A stretch of DNA of 46,627 nucleotides from a virus (Duplodnaviria; Heunggongvirae; Uroviricota; Caudoviricetes): positions 1-46,627 of the IMG/VR virus record IMGVR_UViG_2541047706_000005; one strand, given 5' to 3'. Within the stretch, counting starts at the first letter, position 1. Each line of letters starts with the position of its first letter. A program made the position numbers and the translations under genes. This document shows, piece after piece, positions 7,971 to 46,627 of the stretch. Below the pieces are notes generated by a model, which saw only the letters and a list, made by a program, of their open reading frames with translations, was not told the origin of the DNA and made no database searches.

Positions 7971-8007
7971 GTTAGCCTCTGTTGTTTATACCAAAAATAA
8001 AGGCCGA

Positions 8008-8631
8008 CTATGCGGACTCGGAAGGAAGTCCAATCATCTTATTCAAATCTTCTACCCGTAAAGCAGGAAGTGCTGTACTTGCTTTGTCTGCTTCTTTTGG
8101 TAGCAATTCTTTGCTTTCAGGCCAAACTTCAATAAGTCGCTTAACTGTTGTGACTGAGTTCAAAGCAGCCCATACATTTGATTCGATATCCTTTTTCTTG
8201 GCTTCAAGTTTTTGTTGCAATGCGCAGATTTCATCAAACCTTTTTGTTATTTCGTGTTCTGCATCAAACATGCATTTATCTTTGGTTGGAGTAGGGAGCA
8301 ATATATCTTCGCCGTTGCCGTCTTTCCCATATGAATGCCATCCAACCCTTCTGCCAGATACAGTCAGATAAATTGAAGTAGAACGAACATCGTATGAGTA
8401 AAATGAACATCCCATCTTTTCAAGTTCTTCACTTATAGCTACTAACCTGGATGATAACTGATCCACTTCCTCAGTTTTCTTTTTACCGCCAAACGCAATA
8501 ACTCTGGCGTCAAGTGCAAGCTGGTTCTTTAACTTTGTTACTTCTTCAAGTTCAGTGAAAACCCCAGACTTAATTAAAGCGTTACGAGCGATTTTCTCTT
8601 TCATTCTCGTAGTTAAGCGGATTGATGACAT
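8008..8631 (-). CDS. Hypothetical accessory protein (about 207 aa) immediately downstream of N
   Basis: ORF-track frame 8008..8691, start taken at internal MSSIRLTT; no recognisable family. Confidence 0.5.
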   Translation of the reverse strand: MSSIRLTTRMKEKIARNALIKSGVFTELEEVTKLKNQLALDARVIAFGGKKKTEEVDQLSSRLVAISEELEKMGCSFYSYDVRSTSIYLTVSGRRVGWHSYGKDGNGEDILLPTPTKDKCMFDAEHEITKRFDEICALQQKLEAKKKDIESNVWAALNSVTTVKRLIEVWPESKELLPKEADKASTALPALRVEDLNKMIGLPSESA

Positions 8632-8692
8632 ATTAATTCCTCTCAAATAAGTGGTTTGCTGCCTAATTTTATTTTCTGGCGACCAACACAAG

Positions 8693-9076
8693 TCATCTTG
8701 CTGTCAGTTGTTTGGATTTCCGGTATCCTGCCGCGTAAAGAGCTACGTTCGGAAGACATACACCAGTTTCTGGTTGCTTATGTCCAAACTCATTCGCGTA
8801 CACAATGGCCGCTCGCTCCAGATTGCGTCTGTATTCTTTCTGTTGCCAGATCACGTCCTGTGCCATGAACTTAATTGGCTTAGCGTCTTCTATGCGCTCA
8901 GGCGTTTCGTGAGTACCTTTAGCCTGAATCTGCGCTCTGCTTAGAGTAGGGCGTTGTAATACTTCTGAACTTATTGCTTCTTCGCGGGCCAGTACGCCGT
9001 TAGCTAATGCCTTTGCCTTTAAACGCTCACGACGACGAGAACGTGAATTGCCTTTGAACTGAGTTCTGCGTGTCAT
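8693..9076 (-). CDS. N-type transcription antiterminator, P22 gene-24-like
   Basis: Arg-rich N-terminal motif (RRTQFKGNSRSRRRERLKAKA) and C-terminus LPNVALYAAGYRKSKQLTAR resembling P22 gp24; first gene after pL. Confidence 0.8.
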   Translation of the reverse strand: MTRRTQFKGNSRSRRRERLKAKALANGVLAREEAISSEVLQRPTLSRAQIQAKGTHETPERIEDAKPIKFMAQDVIWQQKEYRRNLERAAIVYANEFGHKQPETGVCLPNVALYAAGYRKSKQLTAR

Positions 9077-9241
9077 ATAGACCTCCTGATGAACTTTGGT
9101 GGTGTGGTAGGTGGGAGACCCATTTCGACCTGTTTCGGCCTACTTCAATTCGGCAATAGTCCCGCAGGCCTCGCCGCTTTACGTGCGACATATTCCCGTC
9201 CATGAACCCTTCACCACACCCCAAAGTTCACTTTGGTTATT

Positions 9242-9256
9242 GCGCTTTGTCAGCGC
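9242..9256 (-). promoter_or_regulatory. nutL boxB-like hairpin (P22 type)
   Basis: Minus-strand GCGCTGACAAAGCGC between pL and N; approximate coordinates. Confidence 0.55.
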
Positions 9257-9324
9257 CGTAGATTCATATTCGAATCGTTGTATATTCACCGCCCTGGTGA
9301 GTAGTGCGTCCTGCTGATGTGTTT

Positions 9325-9387
9325 AGTATCACCGCCAGTGGTATTTATGTCAACACCGCCAGAGATAATTTATCACCGCAGATGGTT
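9325..9387 (-). promoter_or_regulatory. Lambda oL1-oL2-oL3 operators with pL
   Basis: Three 17-bp operators matching lambda OL (tatcaccgccagtggta, caacaccgccagagata, tatcaccgcagatggtt); TTGACA/GATACT on minus strand. Confidence 0.9.
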
Positions 9388-9540
9388 ATCTGTATGTTTT
9401 TTATATAGATTTATTTTTTTGCAGGGGTGTGTGGCTTGGGAGGTGATCGAGAGATCTGAATTGCGATGTTTAGTGAGTTGTATCTATTAATTTTCAAATA
9501 AATACAATTGGTTATGTGTTTTGGGGCGAACGTGAGGCAA

Positions 9541-9565
9541 AGAAAACCCGGCACTGAGGCCGGGT
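9541..9565 (-). terminator. Rho-independent terminator ending the cI operon (tImm-like)
   Basis: Minus-strand stem cccggc/gccggg plus U-tract just after the small ORF stop; approximate coordinates. Confidence 0.6.
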
Positions 9566-9574
9566 GGGGTTTTG

Positions 9575-9745
9575 TTATTGGTGCATTTGGCAGACTGTAG
9601 TATCAGGTCCATAAGCCAAAGTAAAAACAGGCTTGTTGATCAATCCTTTGTTCTTTAATGATTGAATCATTTTACCTTGCTCGCTAACTTTTTGCTTGCT
9701 AAGTATTTCTGCCACTTGCTGTGTCAGTGATTTGTCTTTGCTCAT
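9575..9745 (-). CDS. Small ORF (about 56 aa) coupled to the upstream peptidase-like gene
   Basis: Hand-translated MSKDKSLTQQVAEILSKQK...; its ATG directly abuts the TAA of the 300-aa gene; below track cut-off. Confidence 0.4.
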   Translation of the reverse strand: MSKDKSLTQQVAEILSKQKVSEQGKMIQSLKNKGLINKPVFTLAYGPDTTVCQMHQ

Positions 9746-10648
9746 TTATGACTCACTTTGTTCTGAGAAGGGGAATGAAGACAGAACAAGAACCTGTCGA
9801 TTTGTCTTATACATGTATTCATTAATGACGTTGTGCAGATTTTTTAACGCCATGCTAAAATCTTTGTCGTATGTAAAGTCTTCTACTTTAATTCTTAAGT
9901 CATTGATAAGAGTATTTATTCCTATCGTTCTTCCGTGAGAATGCCACTTTCCGTTGTCACTAAGAGCGGTAGCGATCATTTTAGCTCTTGCTTCTTTTTC
10001 CCTCTTGGAAACTAGCTTTCCTCGTTTTGTGTTACCTTGATGAACCGTCCACTCTCTGAATTTATACTCTACAAGCCACTTCTTAAGCAAGTCTATTGAT
10101 AGCTCTCTGGCTTGCTCGTATCTCCTTAAGTGCGCAAGATCTAACTGACTAAGCATCATTAGTTCAGCTTGGGTAATGGTTCCTTCTCTGGATTTAGTAA
10201 TCATTTCTTCAACTTTATCAAGGTATCCCAAAGCAGGAACCCATTTACCGTCAGAGGATTGCACTTGAGGGTCAATGGGGCCTAATGAAGAAGCATAGTT
10301 CATGTAAATTTTATCTCCAGACATACACCATATTGTGCCTGCCGACATGGCCATATCTGGAATGATAAAATATACCTCTTGATAGAAATGCCTTGTAATT
10401 TCTACCATTTTTTCCACAGACTCAACAGAGCCACCATTTGTATTGAGTATAATAACTAGAAATCTATTGGTACGACTGTTAGCCATCTCCCCAATAGCCT
10501 CAAGTTTTGGTTGGTAAACTTCTTTTGACCATGGAAAGATACCACCGTAGTACGCTATGACGTCGCAGCTTGGGAAAAAGTTATTTTTAAATTGCTCTAA
10601 CTGCCAAGAAATGTATGTTTCTAGTGTTGAATCAAGATTTTGGCTCAT
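9746..10648 (-). CDS. ClpP-fold serine-peptidase-like protein (S49/SDH-type) in the rexAB position
   Basis: ILNTNGGSVES and PDMAMSAGTIWCMSGDKIYMNYASSLGPIDPQ align by eye with ClpP INSPGG and QAASMGA...PNSRVMIHQP blocks; directly downstream of cI on the same strand. Confidence 0.7.
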   Translation of the reverse strand: MSQNLDSTLETYISWQLEQFKNNFFPSCDVIAYYGGIFPWSKEVYQPKLEAIGEMANSRTNRFLVIILNTNGGSVESVEKMVEITRHFYQEVYFIIPDMAMSAGTIWCMSGDKIYMNYASSLGPIDPQVQSSDGKWVPALGYLDKVEEMITKSREGTITQAELMMLSQLDLAHLRRYEQARELSIDLLKKWLVEYKFREWTVHQGNTKRGKLVSKREKEARAKMIATALSDNGKWHSHGRTIGINTLINDLRIKVEDFTYDKDFSMALKNLHNVINEYMYKTNRQVLVLSSFPFSEQSES

Positions 10649-10720
10649 GTGATACCTTGCTATATCAACAATTTACAATAACATGTTGCACTATCGGTTT
10701 TTTATTAATCACAATTGGAA

Positions 10721-11437
<717 letters not shown>

Positions 11438-11444
11438 TTAAATC

Positions 11445-11509
11445 TATCACCGCAAGGGATAAATATCTAACACCGTGCGTGTTGACTATTTTACCTCTAG
11501 CGGTGATAA
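11445..11509. promoter_or_regulatory. Lambda oR3-oR2-oR1 operators with divergent pRM and pR
   Basis: tatcaccgcaagggata, taacaccgtgcgtgttg and tacctctagcggtgata between cI and cro; TTGACT...GATAAT pR. Confidence 0.9.
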
Positions 11510-11525
11510 TGGTTGCATGTACTAA

Positions 11526-11735
<210 letters not shown>

Positions 11736-11773
11736 GTAACACCGCTATTTTCACAATGGACATTCGTCCTACG

Positions 11774-11788
11774 TCGCTGACAAAGCGA
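11774..11788 (+). promoter_or_regulatory. nutR boxB-like hairpin (P22 type)
   Basis: tcgctgacaaagcga between cro and cII; same loop as the nutL candidate. Confidence 0.5.
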
Positions 11789-11873
11789 GTCCCAATATAT
11801 CTGACCAACTAAGGCCATATGCGTTTCCACGCATACCTTTCAACTAACTATTCACTATTGGAAATATTAAGAA

Positions 11874-12170
11874 ATGACACAAGCAAGTTACAGCAAGCCA
11901 ACACAGCGCGACGTTGATCGCGCAGAAACAGATTTACTCATCAACCTGTCAACGCTTACACAGCGCGGTCTGGCAAAGATGATTGGCTGTCATGAATCGA
12001 AGATAAGCAGAACGGACTGGAGATTTATTGCTTCGGTCTTGTGTGCTTTCGGAATGGCATCAGACATCAGTCCGATTAGCAGGGCTTTTAAGTATGCGCT
12101 TGATGGACTCACCAATAAAAAACGCCCGGCGGCAACCGAGCGTTCTGAACAAATCCAGATGGAATTCTGA
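11874..12170 (+). CDS. cII: CII-like transcriptional activator (chimeric: non-lambda N-terminus, lambda C-terminus)
   Basis: C-terminal ...LTNKKRPAATERSEQIQMEF matches lambda CII as remembered; N-terminal two thirds differ. Confidence 0.8.
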   Translation: MTQASYSKPTQRDVDRAETDLLINLSTLTQRGLAKMIGCHESKISRTDWRFIASVLCAFGMASDISPISRAFKYALDGLTNKKRPAATERSEQIQMEF

Positions 12171-12202
12171 GGTCATTACTGGATCAATCCACAGGAGTCA
12201 TT

Positions 12203-13048
12203 ATGACAAATACAGCAAAAATACTCAACTTCGGCAGAGGTAACTTTGCCGAACAGGAGCTAAGAGTGGCTGATATCGATGATGGTTACACCAGATTCGC
12301 TAACGAGCTGCTGGAAGCTATCGCAAGTGCCGATTTAACCGCTCGCCAGTTGAAAGTTATGCTGGCCTACGTCCGGAAAACATATGGCTTCAATAAGAAA
12401 ACAGATCGAATAGCCGATGAGCAAATTGCTCAGTTAACAGGACTGTCAAGACAGAATGTTAACAAGGCTAAAAAAGAACTGATTTCAATGAATTGCCTGT
12501 TTATGGATGGAAATAAAATCGGTGTAAACAGGGAGGTATCTGCGTGGCAATTCAGCAAGTGTCTCCAAGTTAGCAACTTTGTCTCGAAGTTAGAGACAAA
12601 AAATGTCTCCAAATTAGAGACACTCAATGTCTCGAAGTTAGAGACACACAAAAGACATTCTTTAAAGACAAAAGAAAATATTAATAAACCCCCTATATCC
12701 CCCAAAAAAGTTTCTCAGAAGTTCGACCCGCTAGAAACAGAGTTGCCTGATTGGTTATCAGCAGAAACATGGTTGTCGTGGGTTACCTATCGCAAGGAGA
12801 TAGGTAAGTCGATCAAGTCTAAGCAAAGTGTCACTCAGGCTATCAACGTTCTAAGCAGAAGTCTGGAGAAGGGATATACACCTGAAGAAATTATAAACCA
12901 GAGCATCGCCAGTGGTTGGCAGGGGATTTTTGAACCCAAGACTCCAAAGGGGAAATCTCAACCGAGGCCGCAGCAGCGAGCTATGCAGGAAAACTTTGCC
13001 GCCAAAGATTACGGGCAAACTGAAATGCCTTCATGGGCGCAGGAGTGA
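12203..13048 (+). CDS. O: Replication initiator, lambda O-like
   Basis: N-terminus MTNTAKILNFGRGNFAEQE... like lambda O; iterons embedded mid-gene. Confidence 0.85.
   Translation: MTNTAKILNFGRGNFAEQELRVADIDDGYTRFANELLEAIASADLTARQLKVMLAYVRKTYGFNKKTDRIADEQIAQLTGLSRQNVNKAKKELISMNCLFMDGNKIGVNREVSAWQFSKCLQVSNFVSKLETKNVSKLETLNVSKLETHKRHSLKTKENINKPPISPKKVSQKFDPLETELPDWLSAETWLSWVTYRKEIGKSIKSKQSVTQAINVLSRSLEKGYTPEEIINQSIASGWQGIFEPKTPKGKSQPRPQQRAMQENFAAKDYGQTEMPSWAQE
12560..12650 (+). repeat. Origin iterons (four approximately 19-bp palindromic repeats) with adjacent A/T-rich tract
   Basis: Repeated tgtctc-N7-gagaca units inside the O gene followed by an AT-rich stretch. Confidence 0.8.
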
Positions 13049-13050
13049 AT

Positions 13051-13944
13051 ATGAATACGACAAATGGTTACAATCTGGCACTGCAAAGGCAACTTGTAGA
13101 CTCAAAAATCAATGACATTTCTGATCTGAAACAGAAACTTGAGTTTAGCAAAATTGGATCAGCATCAGATGGAATGTCAGTTACCAGCACAGTGGAAGAG
13201 TGCGAGAAACACGGTAAATATACTTCCTATGAGAAATATCTGACCATCTCAGGAAAAAGAATTACTTCAAGTAAATCTGAGTGCCCACAGTGCCTTGAGG
13301 AGAAAATTCGTAAGAAAGAGATTGAACGTGAGCAGGCAGAACAAAGAGCAAGACAATCAAAAATTGAATATTTGTTGAATTCTCTCAATATTCCAGAGAG
13401 GTTCAAAAATTGCACTCTTCAGAATTATGAGCCTGTTAACGATGATGCAAAGCGAGTTCTTAAGGTTTGCCAGGCATATGCCAGTAAGTGGCCTGAACGC
13501 CTTCAAAAAGGTGGCGGACTGGTCATGTGTGGTAAGCCTGGAACTGGAAAGAACCACCTTGCACTGGCTATCGCTAGGCACGCCATTATCGAGCATCAAA
13601 GCTCTGTGATATTTACCACTGCGTTGAAAATTGCCAGAGAGTACAAATCAACATGGTCTAAGGCCGCAACCAGAACTGAAGAAGAAGTCATTAGGCAATT
13701 TACGCATCCTGACTTGTTAATAATCGATGAGGTTGGCGTGCAGTTCGGCAGTGATGCTGAAAAGCTAATCATGTTCGAAATTATCAACACCAGATATGAA
13801 TACATGAAGCCAACAATCCTGATTAGTAATCAGAGCAAAGATGAACTTTCGGCATTCATTGGTGAGCGTGTTATTGACAGGATGAATGATGGCGGCGGGT
13901 GCACTCTTGCGTTTACATGGGATAGTTACAGGAGCAGATCGTGA
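13051..13944 (+). CDS. DnaC-like helicase loader (AAA+ ATPase)
   Basis: Walker A GKPGTGKNHLA and Walker B LLIIDEVG; Cys-rich N-terminal region; occupies the lambda P position. Confidence 0.8.
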   Translation: MNTTNGYNLALQRQLVDSKINDISDLKQKLEFSKIGSASDGMSVTSTVEECEKHGKYTSYEKYLTISGKRITSSKSECPQCLEEKIRKKEIEREQAEQRARQSKIEYLLNSLNIPERFKNCTLQNYEPVNDDAKRVLKVCQAYASKWPERLQKGGGLVMCGKPGTGKNHLALAIARHAIIEHQSSVIFTTALKIAREYKSTWSKAATRTEEEVIRQFTHPDLLIIDEVGVQFGSDAEKLIMFEIINTRYEYMKPTILISNQSKDELSAFIGERVIDRMNDGGGCTLAFTWDSYRSRS

Positions 13945-14231
13945 CTGGAAAAGAAATCATCCTGGAATATCTGAAAACTCATGAACAATTCTCCCCACAT
14001 GAATTAGCTCTGATCACCGGAATACCAAATAACAGAATCGCTCAAGCAGCAAGGCATATGGTGAAACAAGGGCATTTGAGTGTTGTTGAGCGTAAGTGGA
14101 AGACGGTTATTTATGCAAAGCGCAAAGTGAAGAAGGAGCCAATTAAAAGAAATCCAGATGGTACGGGGTGGGGATGTGCAAATCCAATGACGGCGTTTAT
14201 TAATAGGGCGCTTATGGAGGTAAGGCAATGA
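13941..14231 (+). CDS. Ren-like protein
   Basis: 96 aa, N-terminus MTGKEIILEYLKTHEQF resembles lambda Ren as remembered. Confidence 0.5.
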   Translation: MTGKEIILEYLKTHEQFSPHELALITGIPNNRIAQAARHMVKQGHLSVVERKWKTVIYAKRKVKKEPIKRNPDGTGWGCANPMTAFINRALMEVRQ

Positions 14232-14312
14232 CCATCTACATCACTGAGCTAATAACAGGGGCTATTTACACAGTAGCCCTTTTTTATTGGATTAAGAACG
14301 AGGGGGATCCTG

Positions 14313-14525
14313 ATGGACACCGTTAACGGAATGTGTTCAGACGCACCGCGTGCCAAAAAATGTAAGTGCGGAAAATCACCGACAATATTCGACATGGAGA
14401 ACGGGTGCCAAATCTACTGCGCTAACCACGCTGTTGTGGCGGCCGCGAATTATCGCAGTGCGGTAACGGAGTGGAATAACCTGAAATCTGTTAGAGAGGG
14501 AAGTCATGAAAAAACTAACCTTTGA
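14313..14525 (+). CDS. Small Cys-rich hypothetical protein
   Basis: ORF track; several Cys pairs. Confidence 0.4.
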   Translation: MDTVNGMCSDAPRAKKCKCGKSPTIFDMENGCQIYCANHAVVAAANYRSAVTEWNNLKSVREGSHEKTNL

Positions 14526-14946
14526 AATTCGATCTCCAGCACATCAGCAAAACGCTATTCACGCGGTACAGCAAATTCTTCCAGACCCAACCAAACCAAT
14601 CGTAGTAACCATTCAGGAACGCAACCGCAGCTTAGACCAAAACCGAAAGCTTTGGGCTTGCCTTGGTGACGTCTCTCGTCAGGTTGAATGGCATGGTCGC
14701 TGGCTGGATGCAGAAAGCTGGAAGTGTGTGTTTACCGCAGCATTAAAGCAGCAGGACGTTGTTCCTAACCTTGCCGGGAATGGCTTTGTGGTAATAGGCC
14801 AGTCAACCAGCAGGATGCGTGTAGGCGAATTTGCGGAGCTATTAGAGCTTATACAGGCATTCGGTACAGAGCGTGGCGTTAAGTGGTCAGACGAAGCGAG
14901 ACTGGCTCTGGAGTGGAAAGCGAGATGGGGAGATCGGGCTGCATGA
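14506..14946 (+). CDS. ninB: NinB recombination protein
   Basis: 146-aa translation recognised as lambda NinB (MKKLTFEIRSPAHQQNAIHAVQQILPDPTKP...). Confidence 0.95.
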   Translation: MKKLTFEIRSPAHQQNAIHAVQQILPDPTKPIVVTIQERNRSLDQNRKLWACLGDVSRQVEWHGRWLDAESWKCVFTAALKQQDVVPNLAGNGFVVIGQSTSRMRVGEFAELLELIQAFGTERGVKWSDEARLALEWKARWGDRAA

Positions 14947-15470
14947 CTATCAAATCAAATACGCCAGCACACGACAAGGACTGCTGGCAAACGCCGCTTT
15001 GGCTTTTTGATGCACTGGATATTGAGTTTGGATTCTGGCTGGATTCGGCAGCGAGCGACAAAAATGCTCTGTGTGCTCACTGGCTAACTGAGGCCGACGA
15101 CGCGCTCAATTCTGAGTGGGTAAGCCACGGTGCAATCTGGAATAACCCACCGTACAGCAATATCAGGCCGTGGGTGGAAAAAGCCGCTGAGCAGTGCATA
15201 CAACAGCGACAGACGGTAGTGATGCTTGTGCCAGAGGATATGTCAGTCGGATGGTTCAGCAAGGCTCTGGAGAGTGTCGACGAAGTTCGCATTATCACTG
15301 ATGGACGGATTAATTTTATCGAACCATCGACAGGGCTGGAGAAGAAGGGAAACAGCAAAGGCTCCATGCTGCTGATTTGGCGACCGTTCATCAGTCCTCG
15401 ACGGATGTTTACTACCGTATCCAAAGCGGCATTGATGGCGATCGGGCAGAGCGTCAGGAGGGCGGCATGA
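14943..15470 (+). CDS. Phage DNA N6-adenine methyltransferase (Dam-like)
   Basis: NPPY motif (IWNNPPYS); start taken at ATG overlapping ninB stop; occupies the ninC position. Confidence 0.8.
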
Positions 15471-15643
15471 GACGACAGCGACGAAGTATCACCGACATCA
15501 TCTGCGAAAACTGCAAATACCTTCCAACGAAACGCTCCAGAAATAAACGCAAGCCAATCCCAAAAGAATCTGACGTAAAAACCTTCAACTACACGGCTCA
15601 CCTGTGGGATATCCGGTGGCTAAGACATCGTGCGAGGAAATAA
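15467..15643 (+). CDS. ninE: NinE
   Basis: [47 protein letters not shown]... recognised as lambda NinE-like. Confidence 0.8.
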
Positions 15644-15649
15644 GGGGAT

Positions 15650-15768
15650 TGACGCGATGATTTATCCGGGGCTATATTCCCAGCACGCCAGCAAAATCTG
15701 GCGTCGGGATTGGCGTCCCGGATAGAGACCGCGACAGACACACGCCGCGAGCGTGTTTTTTTATTGTC
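15650..15768 (+). ncRNA. Candidate small structured RNA (promoter-like element, three hairpins, terminator)
   Basis: TTGACG-17-CTATAT, then stems acgccag/ctggcgt and cggga/tcccg, ending in acacgc-cgcga-gcgtgt plus T7; no ORF. Confidence 0.3.
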
Positions 15769-15923
15769 GAATGCACGCGCACATCTGAATTATGGTGGGC
15801 TGTGTGGGGGCGGAGAGATCCGCGCCGGTCGGTTTCCCGGTTACGCCAACCCTGCACAGTTCACCACCAGACGATTGGCGTCGTCGGTGGTGAGTTATTT
15901 AGAAACCACTCGAGGGCGTCATT

Positions 15924-16604
15924 ATGACAACTCAAATCTCTGTTGAAACTCTCTCCCCGATCACCCATAACCAGATTCCTGTTATCACCACCGAACTTTT
16001 GGCGCAGCTTTATGACACAGAAATTCTGAATATCCAGGTTAACTTCACCAGAAATAAAGAGCGTTTTGTCGAAGGAAAGCACTTTTTTAAAGCAGTGGGT
16101 GAAGAATTAAAAAATTTGCGACTTACTTTAAGTAAGTCACAAAATCCCATCTCTCCCAAAACCCGCTCCCTCATCCTCTGGACAGAACGCGGCGCAGCCC
16201 GTCACGCCAAAATGCTCGAAACCGATCAGGCGTGGGATGTGTTCGAAAAACTGGAAGACTGCTATTTCAGCCAGTGCGAGAAAAATACTGGCAAACAAGA
16301 GAAGAAGCTCAACGGGCTTTCCGCAAAAGAAACAGACAGCCTTGTATGGCTATGGGATTATGCCAACCGCTCACAGGCATTATTCCGCGAACTGTATCCG
16401 GCGCTAAAACAAATTCAATCGAACTATTCCGGCAGATGCTACGACTACGGTCATGAGTTCTCGTATGTTATTGGAATGGCGAGAGACGTTTTAATCAATC
16501 ACACACGAGATGTTGATATTAATGAGCCAGACGGACCAACGAATCTTTCCGCATGGGTAAGGCTTAAGAACAAAGAATTACCTCCTTCACTGCATCGCTA
16601 CTGA
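15924..16604 (+). CDS. ORF6N-domain protein (antirepressor/Roi-like)
   Basis: N-terminal [38 protein letters not shown] resembles the ORF6N domain as remembered. Confidence 0.6.
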
Positions 16605-16631
16605 CAATTGACAACTTAACAAACCCAGCTT

Positions 16632-16652
16632 CGGCTGGGTTTTTTATTGGTG
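16632..16652 (+). terminator. Rho-independent terminator
   Basis: cccagc-ttcg-gctggg followed by T-run. Confidence 0.6.
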
Positions 16653-16672
16653 AATTTTCAATATGAGAGGAC

Positions 16673-17401
16673 ATGACAATGAACGAGCTGATAAATAGCA
16701 ACGTCATCAAAATGACTAGCATTGAAATCGCTGAGCTTACAGGTAAGCGTCATGACAATGTGAAACGAACCATCGAAACGCTGGCTAAAAATGGTGTTAT
16801 CCGGCTTCCTCAAATTGAGGATTGTGGAAGAATCAATGGGTTAGGATTAAATCAAAGTTTTTGTGTGTATGTATTCGAAGGCGAACAAGGAAAGCGAGAC
16901 AGTATTGTCGTTGTAGCCCAGTTGTCGCCAGAGTTCACCGCTCGCCTTGTTGACCGCTGGCGAGAGCTTGAAGAAGCTGCGGTTAATATCCCCAAAACGC
17001 TACCGGAAGCGTTGCGCCTTGCTGCTGATCTTGCTGAGCAGAAAATGCAGCTGGAAAACCAGCTCGCAATTGCCGCACCTAAAGTTGAGTTTGCCGATCG
17101 CGTTGGCGAGGCCAGCGGAATTTTGATTGGAAACTTTGCAAAGGTTGTCGGTATTGGCCAAAACAAACTGTTTGCATGGATGCGCGATCACAAAATCCTT
17201 ATTGCTTCAGGTTCCCGGCGCAATGTGCCAATGCAGGAATATATGGATCGCGGCTATTTCACAGTGAAAGAAACAGCGGTCAACACAAATCACGGAATAC
17301 AGATATCGTTCACCACAAAAATCACCGGGCGTGGTCAACAGTGGCTGACCAGAAAGCTGCTCGATAACGGAATGCTGAAAGTAACAGGGGAGGCTGCTTA
17401 A
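16673..17401 (+). CDS. Rha-family regulatory protein with KilA-C-type antirepressor domain
   Basis: N-terminal SIEIAELTGKRHDNVKRTIETL (Rha-like) plus C-terminal domain typical of phage antirepressors. Confidence 0.6.
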   Translation: MTMNELINSNVIKMTSIEIAELTGKRHDNVKRTIETLAKNGVIRLPQIEDCGRINGLGLNQSFCVYVFEGEQGKRDSIVVVAQLSPEFTARLVDRWRELEEAAVNIPKTLPEALRLAADLAEQKMQLENQLAIAAPKVEFADRVGEASGILIGNFAKVVGIGQNKLFAWMRDHKILIASGSRRNVPMQEYMDRGYFTVKETAVNTNHGIQISFTTKITGRGQQWLTRKLLDNGMLKVTGEAA

Positions 17402-17691
17402 TGGCTAACCTACGCAAAGAAGCGCGCGGCAGAGAATGCCAGGTACGTATTTACGGCATATGCAATGACAATCCTGAAACTACAGTTCTGGCACATTACC
17501 GGATGGCTGGAATTTGCGGAACTGGAATGAAGCCTGACGACCTGATCGGCGCATGGGCTTGTAGCGCGTGTCACGATGAAATCGACCGGCGTACAATGAT
17601 TCTCGACAACAAAGACGCCAGACTTTACCACCTCGAAGGCGTGATCAGGACGCAGGCGATACTGCTGAAGGAGGGGAAGATTAAGTCATGA
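17401..17691 (+). CDS. DUF1364/YbcO-like Cys-rich protein
   Basis: 96 aa with conserved Cys/His pattern; immediately upstream of rusA as in other lambdoid prophages. Confidence 0.55.
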   Translation: MANLRKEARGRECQVRIYGICNDNPETTVLAHYRMAGICGTGMKPDDLIGAWACSACHDEIDRRTMILDNKDARLYHLEGVIRTQAILLKEGKIKS

Positions 17692-18083
17692 AAACCTACC
17701 GAATAAAATTGCCGTGGCCTCCTTCAAACAACCGATATTGGCGACACTCAAGAGGGACCCACTACATCAGCGACTGGGGGAAGAGATACCGAAAAGAAGT
17801 AATCGAATTAATTCAGCAACAACAGCTAGACATCAAAATCACACCTCGCATCAGAATAACCATCCACGCAGCACCTCCCGATAACCGCAAACGAGATTTG
17901 GACAATCTGCCCAAAGCCGTTTTTGACGCACTCACCAGTGCGGGCTTCTGGCTGGATGACGGTCAGATAGACGATATGCGCGTCAAGCGCTATCAGGCGA
18001 TTAAAGGTGGAATGCTTGTGTTGGTTGTGACTGAAACATGCGGGAGTTTGCCAATGATTACAGAGCTACTGGAGGCCGCATGA
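17688..18083 (+). CDS. rusA: RusA Holliday-junction resolvase
   Basis: 131-aa product with the RusA acidic catalytic region (DxDN). Confidence 0.85.
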   Translation: MKTYRIKLPWPPSNNRYWRHSRGTHYISDWGKRYRKEVIELIQQQQLDIKITPRIRITIHAAPPDNRKRDLDNLPKAVFDALTSAGFWLDDGQIDDMRVKRYQAIKGGMLVLVVTETCGSLPMITELLEAA

Positions 18084-18286
18084 CGTTCTCAGTAAAAACC
18101 ATTCCAGACATGCTCGTTGAAGCATACGGAAACCAGACAGAAGTAGCACGCAGACTGAAATGTAGTCGCGGCACGGTAAGAAAATACGTTGATGATAAAG
18201 ACGGGAAAAAGCACGCCATCGTCAACGACGTTCTCATGGTTCATCGCGGATGGAGTGAAAGAGATGCGCTATTACGAAAAAATTGA
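18080..18286 (+). CDS. ninH: NinH
   Basis: [37 protein letters not shown]... HTH-like; start overlaps rusA stop. Confidence 0.75.
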
Positions 18287-18935
18287 TGGCAGCAAATACC
18301 GAAATATTTGGGTAGTTGGCGATCTGCACGGATGCTACACGAACCTGATGAACAAACTGGATACGATTGGATTCGACAACAAAAAAGACCTGCTTATCTC
18401 GGTGGGCGATTTGGTCGATCGCGGTACAGAGAACGTCGAATGCCTGGAATTAATCACATTCCCCTGGTTCAGAGCTGTACGTGGAAACCATGAACACATG
18501 ATGATTGATGGCTTATCAGAGCGTGGAAACGTCAATCACTGGCTGCTTAATGGCGGTGGCTGGTTCTTTAATCTCGATTACGACAAAGAAATTCTGGCTA
18601 AAGCTCTTGCCCATAAAGCAGAAGAACTTCCGTTAATCATCGAACTGGTGAGCAAAGGTAAAAAATATGTCATTTGCCACGCCGATTATCCTTGTGATGA
18701 ATACGAGTTTGGAAAGCCAGTTGATCATCAGCAGGTAATCTGGAACCGCGAACGAATCGGCAACTCACAAAACGGGATCGTGAAAGAAATTAAAGGCGCG
18801 GACACGTTCATCTTTGGTCATACGCCAGCAGTGAAACCACTCAAATTTGCCAACCAGATGTATATCGATACCGGCGCAGTGTTCTGCGGAAACCTCACAT
18901 TGATTCAGGTACAGGGAGAAGGCGCGTGGGCATAA
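18264..18935 (+). CDS. ninI: Lambda-type Ser/Thr protein phosphatase (NinI)
   Basis: GDLHG, GDLVDRG and GNHE metallophosphatase motifs; matches lambda phosphatase as remembered. Confidence 0.9.
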
Positions 18936-19444
18936 GAGAACTAAACCTCACCAAAGAACAGCATGAGTGGCTGAATGGCTGGCTTGAACTGTGGGGCGCA
19001 TGGGTTTATTCAGGTCGTCTGGAAAAGCGCATGAGCAGCGTAATAGCGAAGTTCATGGAGAGCGTAGAGCCGGGAAGAGTTATGACAAGGCCAATGTGTA
19101 ATGATGATGATGGAATGTTGATTTCTCAGGTCGTCGATTCCGTCATGTATATTGACAAGAAAGCCTTTGGCATCCTCCTAAGCTACTACGCTCATGGTTC
19201 ATCTAAGCGAGCAATTGCATCCTACTATCACGCGACTGCAAAGCCACGCAAGATGTGTGGACGTGGTGGCGAGGGATGGAGAAAACCTTCACTGGCAACC
19301 TGTAGAAACGAAATTGACGACATCCTGAAAGCGTCATTATTTGTTTTATACCAGCCAATGCAAAATGCTTTTAAAATGCGTAAACGTGTTGAGAAAGTTA
19401 AGCATGTTGCTGTTAAAAGCCTTGACATGCAATTATCCATTTAG
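18926..19444 (+). CDS. Late-gene antiterminator Q (Q82/Q21 type, not lambda Q)
   Basis: WLELWGAW N-terminal motif typical of the Q82/Q21 family; position just before pR'. Confidence 0.65.
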
Positions 19445-19451
19445 CCATAAT
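19422..19451 (+). promoter_or_regulatory. Candidate late promoter pR'
   Basis: TTGACA then 18 bp then CATAAT at the 3' end of the Q gene. Confidence 0.4.
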
Positions 19452-19507
19452 TAGAAGGTAAGCTGCCGTTAGTGACTCTTAAGTTGCAACGGTGGCTTTT
19501 TTTATTT

Positions 19508-19582
19508 GGGTCAGTCGTATAAAGGTCATTACGGAAGGCTGTTAACCTTCTTATCGTGGTTCGAGTCCACGCTGTCCCGCCA
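19508..19582 (+). tRNA. tRNA-like gene, anticodon GTT (Asn) by hand folding; non-canonical acceptor/D-arm
   Basis: T-arm cgtgg-ttcgagt-ccacg, anticodon stem gaagg/ccttc with loop ctGTTaa, 3' gcca; one acceptor mismatch. Confidence 0.5.
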
Positions 19583-19587
19583 AACAT

Positions 19588-19663
19588 GCTGTTTTAGCTC
19601 CAATGGTAGAGCGGTCGCCTTGTAAGCGAATGGGTAGCGGTTCAAGTCCGTTAAACAGCACCA
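19588..19663 (+). tRNA. tRNA-like gene, anticodon TGT (Thr) by hand folding
   Basis: Acceptor gctgttt/aaacagc, D-arm gctc-caatggta-gagc, loop ctTGTaa, T-arm agcgg-ttcaagt-ccgtt, 3' ACCA. Confidence 0.6.
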
Positions 19664-19750
19664 TAACTGAGCCGTAGCCACTGGCTATCCTGAATTCATC
19701 AGTGATAGTTACGCTGCGGCCTTCTACACATGACCTTCGTGAAAGCGGGT

Positions 19751-19786
19751 GGCAAGAGGTTGCGCTAACAACCTCCTGCCGTTTTG
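19751..19786 (+). terminator. Strong rho-independent terminator (tR'-like) before the lysis genes
   Basis: 12-bp stem ggcaagaggttg/caacctcctgcc with 5-nt loop followed by gtttt. Confidence 0.6.
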
Positions 19787-19834
19787 CCCTTATTCCTAAT
19801 TAAATAGAGCAAATCCCCTTATTGGGGCTAAGAC

Positions 19835-20158
19835 ATGAAGATGCCAGAAAAACATGACCTGTTAGCCGCCATTCTCGCGGCAAAGGAACAAGGCATCGGG
19901 GCAATCCTTGCGTTTGCAATGGCGTACCTTCGCGGCAGATATAATGGCGGTGCGTTTACAAAAACAGTAATCGACGCAACGATGTGCGCCATTATCGCCT
20001 GGTTCATTCGTGACCTTCTCGACTTCGCCGGACTAAGTAGCAACCTCGCTTATATAACGAGCGTGTTCATCGGCTACATCGGTACTGACTCGATTGGTTC
20101 GCTTATCAAACGCTTCGCTGCTAAAAAAGCCGGAATAGAAGATGGTGGAAATCAATAA
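19835..20158 (+). CDS. S: Lambda S holin
   Basis: 107-aa [39 protein letters not shown]... recognised as lambda S (dual-start MKM). Confidence 0.97.
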
Positions 20159-20618
20159 TCAACGTAAGGCGTTCCTCGATATGCTGGCGTGGTCAGAGGG
20201 AACTGATAACGGACGTCAGAAAACCAGAAATCATGGTTATGACGTCATTGTTGGCGGAGAGCTATTCACTGATTACTCCGATCACCCTCGCAAACTTGTC
20301 ACGCTAAACCCCAAACTCAAATCAACAGCCGCCGGACGCTACCAGCTTCTTTCCCGTTGGTGGGATGCATACCGCAAGCAGCTTGGCCTGAAAGACTTCT
20401 CTCCGAAAAGCCAGGACGCAGTGGCACTGCAACAGATTAAAGAGCGTGGCGCTTTACCGATGATTGACCGCGGTGATATTCGTCAGGCAATCGACCGTTG
20501 CAGCAATATCTGGGCTTCACTGCCGGGCGCTGGTTATGGCCAGTTCGAGCATAAGGCTGACAACCTGATTGCAAAATTCAAAGAGGCTGGCGGAACGGTC
20601 AGAGAGATTGAGGTATGA
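20142..20618 (+). CDS. R: Lambda R endolysin (lytic transglycosylase)
   Basis: 158-aa [39 protein letters not shown]... recognised as lambda R. Confidence 0.97.
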
Positions 20619-21082
20619 GCAGAGTAACCGCGATTATCTCAGCTCTGGTTATCTGCATCATCGTTTGCCTGTCATGGGCTGTTAATCATTACCGTGATAA
20701 CGCCATCGCCTACAAAGAGCAGCGCGATAACAAGGCCAGTGAACTGGAGAAGGTGAACGCCACCATTACTGACATGCAGCAGCGCCAGCGTGATGCTGAT
20801 GCACTCGATGCTAAATACACGAAGGAGTTAGCCGATGCAAAAGCTGAAAATGATGCTCTGCAGCGCAAGCTTGATAATGGTGGTCGGGTGCTCGTCAAAG
20901 GCAAGTGTCCAGTGTCAGCCGCAACCCAAACCACCGGCGCCGCCAGCATGGGCGATGATGCCACCGTCGAACTCTCTGCAGTTGCTGGACGAAACGTTCT
21001 TGGTATCCGATCCGGAATCGTCAGCGACCAAACAGCCCTGAGAGCGCTGCAGGAATACATCACCACGCAGTGCCTGAAGTAA
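20615..21082 (+). CDS. Rz: Rz i-spanin (lambda-like N-terminus, diverged C-terminus)
   Basis: [31 protein letters not shown]... as lambda Rz; coiled-coil C-terminus. Confidence 0.85.
20835..21041 (+). CDS. Rz1: Rz1 o-spanin lipoprotein embedded in Rz (+1 frame)
   Basis: [19 protein letters not shown] lipobox followed by Pro-rich segment, as lambda Rz1. Confidence 0.7.
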
Positions 21083-41687: not shown

Positions 41688-41712
41688 CAAACCCGCTTCG
41701 GCGGGTTTTTTT
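41688..41712 (+). terminator. Rho-independent terminator after the moron
   Basis: aacccgc-ttcg-gcgggtt followed by T-run. Confidence 0.65.
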
Positions 41713-41733
41713 ATGCCTAAATCCGGAGGAGAC

Positions 41734-44640
41734 ATGGCACTAACCCTTTTGGCTACAAACAACGCAGAAAGCACGCTGGCTTCTGCTATCAGCGCAACCG
41801 ACACGTCGCTGATCGTTAGCGCTGGAACTGGTGCCGAGTTCCCTGATGCTGTGGCAGGCGAGAGCTACTTTAAACTCACTCTCACCGATGCCGCCACCGG
41901 CTCACAGGTTGAGATCGTGAACGTGACAGCCAAGGCTGGGGACATCTTCACGATTGAACGCGCACAGGAAGGAACGATGGCGCGTGCATGGGCGGCCAAC
42001 GATATGGTTGCCAATATGATGACCGCTGACACGCTGAATGTGATCGCACAATACACGCAGCAGGCCGGGGAATCAGCAGCACAGTCAATTGAGGCGGCTA
42101 ATAACGCCTCTGAATATGCAAAGAACAAATATACATTCTACAAAACCGCCGGCGATCCTGATGGCACCATTGCGGGCCTGGCGGCGACAACTGACGGACA
42201 GTCGTTCTGGGTAGCTCAGGGGCCAGATGCGCTTTCTGCTGCATGGCAGTATCAAAACAATGCTGGCGTGGCCGTATTGCAGGCAAAGCAGCCAGGCACG
42301 GCAGCCATAACCGGGACAATCCGCGAATTCCCCACGCTGGAGGCGGCACAGGATGATGCCGATGCCGGCAATATTCCTACAGGTTCAACTGCGTATTATC
42401 GAAGCGCTGACGACGAAACTCTTGCGATTGAGGTCATTAACACTTCAGGAACGCTGCAGCCTACTGGACGAAAAATGCCATCCGCAATGCCAATGGGTTA
42501 CCAGTCTGCTACAGCTGTGAGTAGCGGTGCGGCTAATACCATTGCTATCACTATCCCCGGATTATTAGTGGACGGAAGCTTAATTTATTTTCTGTCCCCT
42601 ATATTGAACACCTCATCAGTCAATGTGACTGTAACTGATGCTAAGGGTAATTCTGTAATAAGAGCTGTACAGAAACAAAATAACGCGCCATTAGTCGGAA
42701 GTGAATTGCTGCTAAACCAGCCAGTATTAATGGAATTCCGCACTGGGACTGCTAACAATTTTGTCCTTGTGGCATCCGGCCCAGTAGCTGCTGAACTTGC
42801 GTCAAGAATTTCCACGCTTGAATTAAATAGCGTAGCGTTATTGTCTGGCGTTGCTAATACTGCGGACGCCTACACCGCGTCAGCGTCAGCGATACCAGGC
42901 CTGGTTGCCTCTGACCGCGTTTTCCTTTTCACTCCGAGTGCGACGAACACGACACGGACGCCGACCTTATCCGTGAATGGCGGCACTGCGCGCCAGATCA
43001 AACAGGCGAATGGTACCAACGTCGCAGCGGGAGACCTGGTCTCTGGCTACCCTTATTTATTAAAATTCAATTTTGCATCGGCTGACTTTCGTATGCTCAC
43101 ATACCCAGCGGACCGGACGCGTCTGCTCAGCGGCCAGCAGAAGGCCACCGTAACCAGTGACGCAACAAGCCCGAACGCTATATCTTTAACAATCCCGGGC
43201 CTTATCGCGGACGGCACACAAATCACATTCGAGCCAGCTGTCACCAATACCGGGGCGGTGACGCTGCTAATCACCAACATGTATGGCGACACCGTGACTC
43301 GCACCCTGATGAAAGGGGCTAACACTCCTCTCGTCGGTGGTGAACTGAAGTACGCCATGCCGGTTTCTATCATGTTCAGGGGGGCTCCACAGAACAACTT
43401 TAAGCTCCTATATGCTGGCGACCCTACCACGGATATACAGACCCTATCGAACGACGTTACGACGCTCAAGGGGTCGCTGACAGACCCTTATGCTGCTCTG
43501 GCGGATAAACTCGTGGGCACCGGGGTATCATCAGACCAGTCACCATTCGGTACTATAACTTGGTCCGCGGGGGTTAAGAGCGTCACTAAGCGGCAGATCA
43601 TTTGTACGTCTGTCGGGTCTTCTGTTGGCGTTGGGGCCGGCTCTACTGGCGGTGGTGCGGCAGGTGCCGCTTATGCACCGAACACACTGTTCGTCAACGC
43701 CTTGAAGGAAGAGCTTAAACAGTACGGCGAGTTTGACGTCATCGATGACAACCAGTGCATACCAACTCAGGCGATTCAGCAGTTCGCTGCCCAGCTAGCG
43801 AATTCGCCTTATTCAACCTCCGACTTTGTTTTGATTGTAGGGGGGATGAATGATGCGCCAGTTGGTAACTTCAACATGGGGCGCACATTCCCCGGTCAAC
43901 AAACGTCTCTCGAGTCGCTGGTAGACTTGTGTCTGGCACGAGGAGCGATTCCAATCATTTGCACTACTCCACATCATAATGTGGAAATGTCTCAGACGTA
44001 CCCCACAATCCCCGGTGGTAACCCGCTGTTCTGGCCGTTCAGGACATATAATGTCACAAGTACATATGTCTTCGACGCCGTTGCAAATACCATCACGCAG
44101 AGTAACTTTGCTAACCCGAATTATGGCGGCAATATTCTGAAGCCGGGGCATACTCTGCGCGTAGAAAGTGGAGACAATATCGGCAACTATACTATCACGG
44201 CCATTTCCTCTGACCGGAATACCATAACCGTCCAAGAGACAATCCCGGTAAGTGGAAGCTACTCGACAACGGTCAGACACTTTAACCTGCAGTCCATCGC
44301 TGAGGATATTCTTTACCCTGCACCGTCGGTTTCCTTTGTAACAAAAGACTGGTCCGGTAGCGGCGTTAAGGTACAGGGAGATGTGCGGTTCGAAATGGTG
44401 AATAATATGCAAAGGGTCGTCGCACGCAAAAAAGGCGCGTTCCTCGCAGACTGTGAAAAGTCGTTCTTTAAGTATGGTGTAGAGGTTGGTGGTTACTCGT
44501 CGGTATATAACGTCCCAGCTGGAAACTACAATCACATGAACGATAACGGGTACACAGTAACTTTCGACTACACGCTGAAAGTCGCAGCAAGGAAGATTGC
44601 CAATCTCATATTCGGAGATAAATATTACTCTGCAGCATAA
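41734..44640 (+). CDS. Tail fibre protein with three internal repeats and C-terminal SGNH/GDSL-hydrolase-like domain
   Basis: N-terminal domain shared with second fibre; three approximately 90-aa repeats (IPGL..DG...PLVGGEL...NF.L); C-terminal blocks GSSVG and GGMNDAP. Confidence 0.65.
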   Translation: MALTLLATNNAESTLASAISATDTSLIVSAGTGAEFPDAVAGESYFKLTLTDAATGSQVEIVNVTAKAGDIFTIERAQEGTMARAWAANDMVANMMTADTLNVIAQYTQQAGESAAQSIEAANNASEYAKNKYTFYKTAGDPDGTIAGLAATTDGQSFWVAQGPDALSAAWQYQNNAGVAVLQAKQPGTAAITGTIREFPTLEAAQDDADAGNIPTGSTAYYRSADDETLAIEVINTSGTLQPTGRKMPSAMPMGYQSATAVSSGAANTIAITIPGLLVDGSLIYFLSPILNTSSVNVTVTDAKGNSVIRAVQKQNNAPLVGSELLLNQPVLMEFRTGTANNFVLVASGPVAAELASRISTLELNSVALLSGVANTADAYTASASAIPGLVASDRVFLFTPSATNTTRTPTLSVNGGTARQIKQANGTNVAAGDLVSGYPYLLKFNFASADFRMLTYPADRTRLLSGQQKATVTSDATSPNAISLTIPGLIADGTQITFEPAVTNTGAVTLLITNMYGDTVTRTLMKGANTPLVGGELKYAMPVSIMFRGAPQNNFKLLYAGDPTTDIQTLSNDVTTLKGSLTDPYAALADKLVGTGVSSDQSPFGTITWSAGVKSVTKRQIICTSVGSSVGVGAGSTGGGAAGAAYAPNTLFVNALKEELKQYGEFDVIDDNQCIPTQAIQQFAAQLANSPYSTSDFVLIVGGMNDAPVGNFNMGRTFPGQQTSLESLVDLCLARGAIPIICTTPHHNVEMSQTYPTIPGGNPLFWPFRTYNVTSTYVFDAVANTITQSNFANPNYGGNILKPGHTLRVESGDNIGNYTITAISSDRNTITVQETIPVSGSYSTTVRHFNLQSIAEDILYPAPSVSFVTKDWSGSGVKVQGDVRFEMVNNMQRVVARKKGAFLADCEKSFFKYGVEVGGYSSVYNVPAGNYNHMNDNGYTVTFDYTLKVAARKIANLIFGDKYYSAA

Positions 44641-44974
44641 GGAATTATCATGGCTTTTAAAATTTCAGCAGTAAAACTGTCCAGATTTATTATCTCGGAG
44701 GATTTCTGTGTGAAAAGGATATCGGTATTGACCTCATTTACTCAGTAGAAAGCGTCAGGCAGGGTGATGCAGGTCAAGTTAAAGCCTCAGTATCTGTTCG
44801 ATATAATGATGCGTCCAGAGTTAACGCTGGAGAGTATGCGGTAACTCTGGACACTTCGTCATCAAAACCGTGGACAGAACAGGCTGAGCAGCAACTTATG
44901 CAAGCTGAAGAGTTTGCTGGGGCAGTTGTCCTGTAACCACAAAAAAAACCTACGCAGACTGAACGGGGTTGACT

Positions 44975-45022
44975 GCCCTCCGATAAAACTACTGTATATA
45001 ACAACAGTGTTTATCGGAGGGC
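44975..45022 (+). promoter_or_regulatory. LexA (SOS) box CTGTATATAACAACAG nested in a 13-15-bp perfect inverted repeat, overlapping a promoter
   Basis: CTGT-N8-ACAG at about 44992..45007; flanking arms gccctccgataaa / tttatcggagggc; TTGACT upstream; ggaggg RBS and ATG downstream. Confidence 0.6.
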
Positions 45023-45027
45023 AGATC

Positions 45028-45267
45028 ATGCTTCGACAGTCAGACATCGCCGCGGCTTTCCGCGAGTCCATTTTGCGCAGTTCCAAGGGGTTCCAGTACC
45101 TCCACACCCGCGACTTCGTTACCGCGCTTCGCCGGCGTGGCATCCATTTTTCCGAGGTGGAGGCGAACTCCTGGATCGCACGCGAGCAGACGTATTTCGT
45201 CGATAAGACGCCGGACCATAGCGAAAACAGGCTGTGGATGATGGCCAACATGGGGAGGGTGATCTAA
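45028..45267 (+). CDS. Small protein (79 aa) of unknown function, putatively SOS-regulated
   Basis: Start MLRQSDIAAAF with RBS; within ORF-track frame 44914..45267. Confidence 0.5.
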   Translation: MLRQSDIAAAFRESILRSSKGFQYLHTRDFVTALRRRGIHFSEVEANSWIAREQTYFVDKTPDHSENRLWMMANMGRVI

Positions 45268-45584
45268 TGGGATTCCCTTCACCAGCGACGGACTACGTTG
45301 AGCAAAGGTTGTCTGTTAACTCGATCTGCAATGTCGGCCCAAACACGCTAGTTTTCGAGCGATCTGGCGGTTACGTTGTGCTGGATATCTCCCTGAAGCC
45401 AAAGCAGGGTAGTCAGGTTCTTATCCAGCACGGCGGCGGGACGGAGCTTGCCACGCTGAGAGGAAAGTCACTGATTACTGAAGATGGTGAAGCGATCGAG
45501 GGCGAAGCCCTGGACGATGTTACTGTCATCGGCGTCGTGACGTTTACTATCTGCGATGTTCGTTCCGATAATTCTATTATTTAA
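45267..45584 (+). CDS. UmuD'-like protein lacking the N-terminal arm and apparently lacking the catalytic Ser
   Basis: Begins MGFPSPATDYVEQRLSVN, aligning with UmuD from its Cys24-Gly25 cleavage site (CGFPSPAADYVEQR); SGDSM region reads RSGGYV. Confidence 0.55.
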   Translation: MGFPSPATDYVEQRLSVNSICNVGPNTLVFERSGGYVVLDISLKPKQGSQVLIQHGGGTELATLRGKSLITEDGEAIEGEALDDVTVIGVVTFTICDVRSDNSII

Positions 45585-45595
45585 CTGGGGTATAT

Positions 45596-46627
45596 ATGGC
45601 GATGAAGCTATTAGCCAATAATAACGCAAAGAGTGTTCTCGCTGCGGGTATTAGCGCGTCCGCTACCGTTATTACCGTGGGTACTGGAGCGGGGTCTTTA
45701 TTCCCGTCCCCTGTATCTGGGCAGAGTTATTTCAAATTAACGATAACCGACGCGGCCACGAAAACAATTTCTGAAATTATGCACGTCACGTCTGTATCCG
45801 GTGACGTGATGACAGTAATTCGTGGTCAGGAAGGAACTACGGCACGCGTATGGTCAACGAATGACATTGTCGCGAATTTAATGACCGCCGGATCATTGTT
45901 GTCGTTCCTGCAGATCAGCAATAACCTGTCAGAAATTAAAGATGCCGGTGAGGATGCGATAAATGAAGCCCGTTATAACCTCGGAATATCTGATTCCTCT
46001 GGTTTTGTCGGGCGTTCACTTGGCGCTCCAAAAGCTTTCTATGCAAACGGAACCTATACGCGATCTCCTCTGGCCCGTTATGCAAAAGTAACGTTGACCG
46101 GTGCCGGTGGCGGCGGTGGCGGCTGCCAGGCCTCCAACAATACAGAAACCTTCTCCGGTGCTGGCGGCGGCGCGGGCGCGACCATTATCGTATGGGTTGA
46201 CCTGTCTGCTGCCAGTTCTTATGCGATTACTGTCGGCAAGGGTGGTAAGGGCGGAGTTGGCGCAGTAAGTGGTGCGGATGGTGGGGCCACCTCGTTTGCC
46301 AGCCTGTTCTCAGCTCCTGGCGGGAAAGGAGGAGTGAAGTCAGGCGTGTCCAATACCGCCGGCGGCGCCGGAGGTACGGCGGCGACCGGAGATATCAGGA
46401 TCAACGGTGGTACCGGCTCAGATGGACAGACAGGCTCAAGCCTTCTGACGGGCAACGGCGGGGCGTCGTATTTTGGCGGCGGTGGCCGGGCGGGTTCTCA
46501 GGCCGGTATTGCTGGCGCAGCTCCCGGATCCGGTGGTGGTGGCGCGTATGACCTTGGGTTTACCGGTACGGCATTTACCGGTGGTGATGGTGCTACTGGC
46601 ATGGCGATCGTGGAAGAATTCGCGTAA
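45596..46627 (+). CDS. Second tail-fibre protein (paralogous N-terminus, Gly-rich C-terminal domain)
   Basis: N-terminal about 100 aa alignable with the first fibre; C-terminus rich in GGxGG repeats. Confidence 0.65.
   Translation: MAMKLLANNNAKSVLAAGISASATVITVGTGAGSLFPSPVSGQSYFKLTITDAATKTISEIMHVTSVSGDVMTVIRGQEGTTARVWSTNDIVANLMTAGSLLSFLQISNNLSEIKDAGEDAINEARYNLGISDSSGFVGRSLGAPKAFYANGTYTRSPLARYAKVTLTGAGGGGGGCQASNNTETFSGAGGGAGATIIVWVDLSAASSYAITVGKGGKGGVGAVSGADGGATSFASLFSAPGGKGGVKSGVSNTAGGAGGTAATGDIRINGGTGSDGQTGSSLLTGNGGASYFGGGGRAGSQAGIAGAAPGSGGGGAYDLGFTGTAFTGGDGATGMAIVEEFA

Follow-up and report, generated by a model that had tools for sequence, protein, structure and literature searches.

Proteins such as lambda Tfa, Mu U' and T4 gp38/gp57A are encoded directly after a fibre gene, and overlapping frames in the -1 relation are known from dnaX of E. 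coli and from the lambda tail assembly chaperone G/GT. In E. coli, lysine codons within A-runs are shift-prone sites, as exemplified by the A_AAA_AAG sequence of dnaX. Both dnaX and lambda G/GT contain a slippery heptamer and the two-frame layout is conserved in their relatives; dnaX has in addition a Shine-Dalgarno (SD) sequence and a stem-loop as stimulators. Transcriptional slippage typically needs an A/T run of 7-9 or more. The locus described here resembles these systems in several respects. A small gene of a late operon is found directly after a tail fibre gene, in this case with a gap of 9 nt and a strict linkage to a single fibre family, and a short open reading frame is overlapped by a longer -1 frame with a Lys AAA codon at the site of the shift.

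The window, i.e. the whole stretch of 46,627 nucleotides that was analysed, contains downstream of the tail fibre both elements described by the initial annotation, a 32-codon ORF that runs on the plus strand from ATG 44650 to a stop codon, TAG, at 44746-44748, and a long overlapping frame without start codon that continues to 44936. The 32-codon ORF encodes MAFKISAVKLSRFIISEDFCVKRISVLTSFTQ. The -1 frame is devoid of stop codons from 44661 to the TAA at 44934-44936, corresponding to 91 codons, an open stretch for which we estimate a chance probability of (61/64)^91 or about 1%, and homologues show that it is coding. There is no ATG, GTG or TTG in this frame (44661-44936) before position 44898, which rules out a translation restart within it.

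Where does the frame break? A search with the fused sequence in a collection of 5.8 billion proteins retrieved 21 full-length homologues from Klebsiella, E. coli and Raoultella, all of exactly 95 amino acids and 64-81% identical at 100% coverage, all named 'hypothetical' and without Pfam domain. These homologues read MAFKISAVK|TVQIYYLGGFLCEKDI. Frame 0 of the window agrees with them through K9 only and the -1 frame agrees from T10 to the C-terminus, and the break therefore sits in the run of four A's at 44673-44676. DNA alignments with 13 intact alleles (L004-L010, L018 and L019 among them) show GTAAAAAC in the intact alleles versus GTAAAAC in the window and in three further records (L001-L003, see below); in codons, GCA GTA AAA ACT GTC with five A's (A5) versus GCA GTA AAA CTG TCC with four (A4). 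Addition of one A after 44676 yields a 95-residue product that is collinear with every homologue. The proposal that one small gene directly downstream of the tail fibre is split by a single-base shift of the -1 type in an A-run, and that joining the frames would give a protein of roughly 95 residues, was thus borne out by the collinearity of the 21 homologues across both frames and by the exact length of the restored product. The shift had, however, been assigned to the gaaaag tract at 44712-44717, and the homologues place it 40 nt further upstream. A junction at gaaaag is ruled out, as frame-0 residues 10-22 match no homologue, and the same is true for all of the frame-0 residues 10-32 (LSRFIISEDF...) of the 32-residue product, for which an exact-sequence look-up found no record with an identical product. 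Homologues could also have revealed that the two frames are unrelated or that the short ORF is an independently conserved gene; neither was found, as the two frames together make up a single conserved protein and the 32-codon ORF is not conserved as a gene of its own. The tryptic peptide expected across the K9-T10 junction in the restored frame is TVQIYYLGGFLCEK.

Table 1. Position and basis of the features at and around the small gene (window coordinates)
Feature	Position	Strand	Basis and remarks
Tail fibre, 975 aa, SGNH/GDSL esterase domain	41713..44640	+	ORF; Pfam sub-threshold Lipase_GDSL_2, residues 635-763; PHROGs tail-fibre families
Shine-Dalgarno AAGGA of the small gene	44639..44643	+	read from sequence; 6 nt 5' of ATG
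Authentic codons 1-9 (MAFKISAVK), frame 0	44650..44676	+	alignment with 21 intact homologues
Truncated 32-codon ORF of the A4 allele	44650..44748	+	9 authentic codons + 23 out-of-frame codons + TAG
Mutation site, A4 run gtAAAAc	44673..44676	+	DNA alignments; A5 in intact alleles sharing GTA codon 8
Codons 10-95 + TAA, in the -1 frame (TVQIYYLGGFLCEKDIG...AGAVVL)	44676..44936	+	collinear with homologues
Strong hairpin, downstream boundary of the unit	44974..45024	+	fold -44.5 kcal/mol, z = -8.6

How widespread is the split? Across codons 8-10 the reading frame is kept in each of the 13 loci inspected at the DNA level (L004-L010 and L014-L019), and 21 of 22 IMG/VR loci contain an intact ORF of 91-106 codons. 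The remaining one, L041, is a separately decayed copy that is broken elsewhere yet in frame at the A-run; its upstream fibre reading frame is split as well as the 95-residue gene. One IMG/VR locus, L024, is the same contig as L008. About 34 other loci were checked at the DNA level, and all are in frame at the A-run. One-frame intact homologues have 91-106 residues, mostly 95, and occur in prophages of Klebsiella, E. coli and Raoultella, and the junction of fibre stop codon, GGAATTATC and ATG is kept in most homologous loci. Pattern scans of IMG/VR and metagenomes that permitted either A4 or A5 found A5 copies alone, and in the genome_contigs collection the scan for related loci confirmed none and the exact-pattern scan gave 0 matches. 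The A4 allele is shared by E. coli strain 20KM2222 (chromosome, L001), Wanchaivirus PDP110P2 (L002) and Lambdavirus PDP110P1 (L003), which together with the window makes four records of at least three different origins. A tblastn search of the phages collection with the -1-frame peptide matched PDP110P1 and PDP110P2 only, and a distant blastn search against 5,426 complete E. coli genomes matched strain 20KM2222 only.

We consider it probable (roughly 80%) that the A4 allele is a real inactivating mutation and an ordinary recent pseudogene. According to this reading, positions 44650-44936 are one gene of a conserved phage family of about 95 residues located 3' of an SGNH-esterase fibre gene, in which the A5 run across codons 8-10 (GTA AAA ACT) has lost one A, giving GTA AAA CTG. 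Ribosomes initiating at the intact SD sequence and ATG would leave the authentic frame after Lys9 and stop at the TAG at 44746, producing a 32-residue peptide in place of the 95-residue protein, and the A4 allele would yield little or no full-length protein. The loss-of-function allele would then be inherited and travel with the receptor-binding module among phages. Intact single-frame orthologues, restoration by a single base and restriction to a recent lineage (the window and L001-L003), as expected of a frameshift pseudogene, were found. Of the options offered by the initial annotation the pseudogene is favoured; a private sequencing error is disfavoured by the occurrence in four records, and programmed slippage by the lack of a heptamer and of a stimulator and by relatives that are in frame. 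For annotation this means that the two pieces are one disrupted gene with the break at 44673-44676.

A rival reading is functional recoding. A -1 slip of tRNA-Lys on A_AAA (44673-44676) could provide a low, possibly selected, level of the 95-residue protein beside the 32-residue peptide, and re-pairing of this tRNA from AAA at 44674-44676 to AAA at 44673-44675 would give MAFKISAVK-TVQIYY..., precisely as the homologues read, so that some leaky expression is conceivable. Moreover, the downstream frame remains open and the allele is found in a plaque-forming phage and in three backbones. However, there is no X_XXY_YYZ heptamer: in the 0-frame sequence GCA GTA AAA CTG (44668-44679) the AAA tRNA alone can re-pair, and GTA to AGT cannot. 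An internal SD sequence similar to GGAGG or AGGAG is absent from 44650-44672, and the 84 nt downstream of the site fold with -13.5 kcal/mol as compared to a shuffle mean of -16.5 kcal/mol (z = +1.19). The next 0-frame codon, CTG, is a common one, so that no pause is expected. The roughly 34 other DNA-checked loci are in frame and the two-frame layout is confined to one near-clonal module. The locus thereby differs from lambda G/GT and dnaX in having A_AAA only, no stimulators and homologues that are read in a single frame. Slippage of RNA polymerase does not offer a way out either, as the run at 44673-44676 comprises only four A's. We therefore regard functional recoding as quite unlikely. Less probable again is that the A4 allele is alive in a wider sense, in that inefficient -1 slippage at A_AAA, or else switching between A4 and A5, gives small or variable amounts of an undescribed fibre accessory protein. 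If true, the fibres with the K55-capsule esterase would be tuned in their activity or assembly, and slippage would constitute recoding without heptamer or stimulator just 9 codons into a gene.

Could the missing base be an artefact of sequencing or assembly, the true sequence being A5? Single-base homopolymer indels are a classic type of such errors and what is missing here is precisely one A of an A-run, as if a miscall had dropped one base. However, a run of 4-5 bases is short for systematic miscalling, and the identical A4 is shared by the window, the complete RefSeq chromosome of 20KM2222 and the separate records of PDP110P1 and PDP110P2, between which there is no other indel across 3.9-4.5 kb. 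Comparison of window positions 42730-46627 with L001-L003 revealed five differing sites (43529, 44764, 44965, 45602 and 45691) and no indels in 3.9 kb, and L001 and L003 are identical across 6.4 kb. The near-identity of this module in four records that all have A4 makes a private sequencing error unlikely and shows that the mutation is young; we consider an artefact very improbable. It is hardly credible that replication slippage between A4 and A5 reversibly toggles the accessory protein in the manner of a contingency locus. Both forms do exist in nature, at one and the same site close to the 5' end of the gene, but homopolymers that are phase-variable are typically much longer than this tract, and every near-identical copy of the module has A4. 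No A5 copy on a closely matching background was found; even the nearest intact alleles show a divergence of about 5% or more in the gene, and a far greater one in the fibre. There is thus no sign of switching.

The backbones of the A4 carriers differ. The window genome combines an early region similar to HK97 with structural genes similar to those of the Klebsiella phages Chronis and RothC, and three segments were compared, 1331-21000 (HK97-like lambdoid early region), 22000-45885 (Chronis/RothC-like, with a baseplate-J gene) and 42073-46627 (PDP110-like). The N-terminal end of the fibre matches RothC (41690-42047, 97%), and the distal part from 42073/42388 onwards is 98.2-98.6% identical to 20KM2222 and PDP110P1/P2. 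The window genome is thus a three-way mosaic, in which recombination has joined the last two parts within the fibre gene, at about 42050-42390, and a single recent receptor-binding module has passed between at least three phage backbones. The module comprises the distal fibre, the broken gene, a gene for 79 residues, a UmuD-like gene for 105 residues and a glycine-rich second fibre. In the 20KM2222 chromosome (L001, NZ_CP151050.1) RefSeq calls the homologous fibre a truncated SGNH/GDSL pseudogene of positions 1271-1924 only, leaving about 2.5 kb unannotated; the 943-codon fibre ORF at 1250-4081 of L001 is intact, and the broken 95-residue gene carries no RefSeq annotation.

If the A4 allele is a recent pseudogene, are there signs of decay? 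The downstream frame of the A4 copy is still fully open (86 codons), with one private substitution. At 44764, the sole intragenic difference among the A4 copies, the window has G and the other three copies have A, which in the authentic frame is the nonsynonymous exchange D39G at an invariant Asp39. In frame 0 the same G turns the ATG of a 26-codon ORF (44764-44844), which is probably meaningless, into GTG. Positions 56-57 are SR in the A4 lineage versus AK in all intact alleles. D39G and SR at 56-57 are compatible with relaxed constraint, the substitutions being too few to decide, and dN/dS of the A4 alleles versus their nearest intact alleles is 0.2-0.4 (family median 0.09) over very few substitutions. 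There is thus little positive sign of decay, which is expected for a recent mutation and is equally what a functional recoded gene would show.

What is the intact protein? Among 44 pairs of intact alleles the median dN/dS is 0.09; the intact alleles are thus under strong purifying selection, as befits a real gene. No Pfam or PHROG family matches the small protein, and sequence or structural homology to a known fibre chaperone family of the Tfa, gp38 or gp57A type was not found. An AlphaFold model (pLDDT 80) has four long β-strands and a C-terminal helix. The motif LGGFLC was considered as a lipobox, and a lipoprotein was rejected since the residues preceding the Cys are unfit, the N-terminus does not resemble a signal peptide, the segment is predicted to be a β-strand and distant homologues lack the Cys. 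A truncated relative of 56 residues (P0023) looked like a second case of inactivation but was set aside, as many genes on its contig are fragmented and the contig itself appears to contain numerous errors. In profile searches, long repetitive proteins with a NAGSYPVTATV-like repeat were also encountered, and these were taken as motif or compositional matches and not as functional evidence. Two of them, P0025 and P0027, with lengths of 706-2,586 residues and repeats such as ...NAGSYPVTATVDDANY..., match residues of about 28-69 of the family profile in up to 11 stretches with E about 1e-13 to 1e-14, which may reflect a shared β-hairpin repeat motif or composition only.

The small gene follows the SGNH-esterase fibre family at a distance of 9 nt in the window and in each of the ten comparison loci; among the 22 IMG/VR loci, 18 have this arrangement. 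The C-terminus of the linked fibre family reads ...NYNHxND...KYY. It is this position and linkage that suggest an accessory role of the family for the fibre or spike, in assembly or attachment. In four loci (L025, L027, L028 and L041) an additional ORF of about 92-111 codons is located between the fibre gene and the 95-residue gene, about 100-340 nt upstream of the latter. It ends with ...GIYMVSVDSDSDISGAEDEIQLLPEF, resembling the C-terminus of the family, GEYAVTLD...EQAEQQL..EEF, and the two genes look like tandem paralogues, as far as the C-terminal sequences can tell. Of 50,697 phage records on deposit, PDP110P1 and PDP110P2 alone have the esterase domain of the window fibre. The plaques of PDP110_P1 are reported to have halos, and its host range to cover only the three E. 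coli strains of the authors' collection that have a Klebsiella K55 capsule (Gaborieau et al., bioRxiv 10.1101/2023.11.22.567924). Another fibre, a KL55-associated SGNH protein of a Klebsiella prophage, is an active acetyl-esterase (PLoS Biology 2026, PMC13123978). Since the plaque-forming PDP110_P1 carries the A4 allele, the 95-residue protein appears to be dispensable for plaque formation, unless slippage supplies it, and dispensability also fits with the persistence of A4 in three backbones and in a phage that is viable. In addition, no covariation is seen between the small protein and the fibre, which, together with the viability of the natural knock-out, argues against an obligatory cognate chaperone. 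PDP110_P1 is such a natural knock-out in culturable form, in which a role of the protein in capsule-specific adsorption is testable by a one-base repair.

Downstream, the unit is bounded by a strong hairpin (Table 1). Its loop contains a LexA/SOS-box-like element, TACTGTATATAACAACAG, at 44990-45007, the sole occurrence of TACTGT-N8-ACAG within the whole window, and its right arm contains the SD sequence GGAGGG of the next gene (79 residues, ATG 45028), which is followed by the UmuD-like gene of 105 residues (45267-45584). The box recurs between the equivalent genes in most of the related loci checked, including RothC, which is devoid of the 95-residue gene. These elements suggest a putative SOS-controlled unit of two genes, the SD sequence of which would be masked in read-through transcripts. 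In a metagenomic relative (L016, 4905-6389, minus strand) a gene for 494 residues with a reverse-transcriptase domain (RVT_1) lies between the 95-residue gene and the next small gene (106 residues) and occupies the intergenic position at which related loci have the SOS-box motif.

One by-product of this analysis is a family of small proteins that is strongly conserved, lacks annotation and is tightly linked to SGNH-esterase fibres in temperate phages of Klebsiella and E. coli, with remote relatives that follow tailspikes of lytic Klebsiella phages. The latter are uncharacterised proteins of about 85-96 residues from virulent Klebsiella phages (Magnus gp048 and proteins of vB_KpnP_P184, Kp2 and FBKp27) with a predicted fold like that of the small protein (Foldseek against BFVD, E 1e-5 to 1.6e-3, TM 0.68-0.79). 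Magnus gp048 matches the family profile with a probability of 95.8% and E = 8e-9, the common motif being GxYPVTLD...EQAExQ...EF, and it is encoded 13 nt 3' of a pectin-lyase tail fibre gene. Proteins of the Magnus type are thus found after depolymerase-type spikes in lytic phages, whereas the family of the window is found after SGNH-esterase fibres in temperate phages. As a frameshift, the A4 split is ordinary. Like other homopolymer-indel pseudogenes of prophages and mosaic phages, it consists in the loss of a single base from a short A-run in one recent lineage with relatives that are intact. It differs from these in that the carrier is not obviously decaying: the fibre gene, the 79-residue gene, the UmuD-like gene and the second-fibre gene are intact, and an A4 phage forms plaques.
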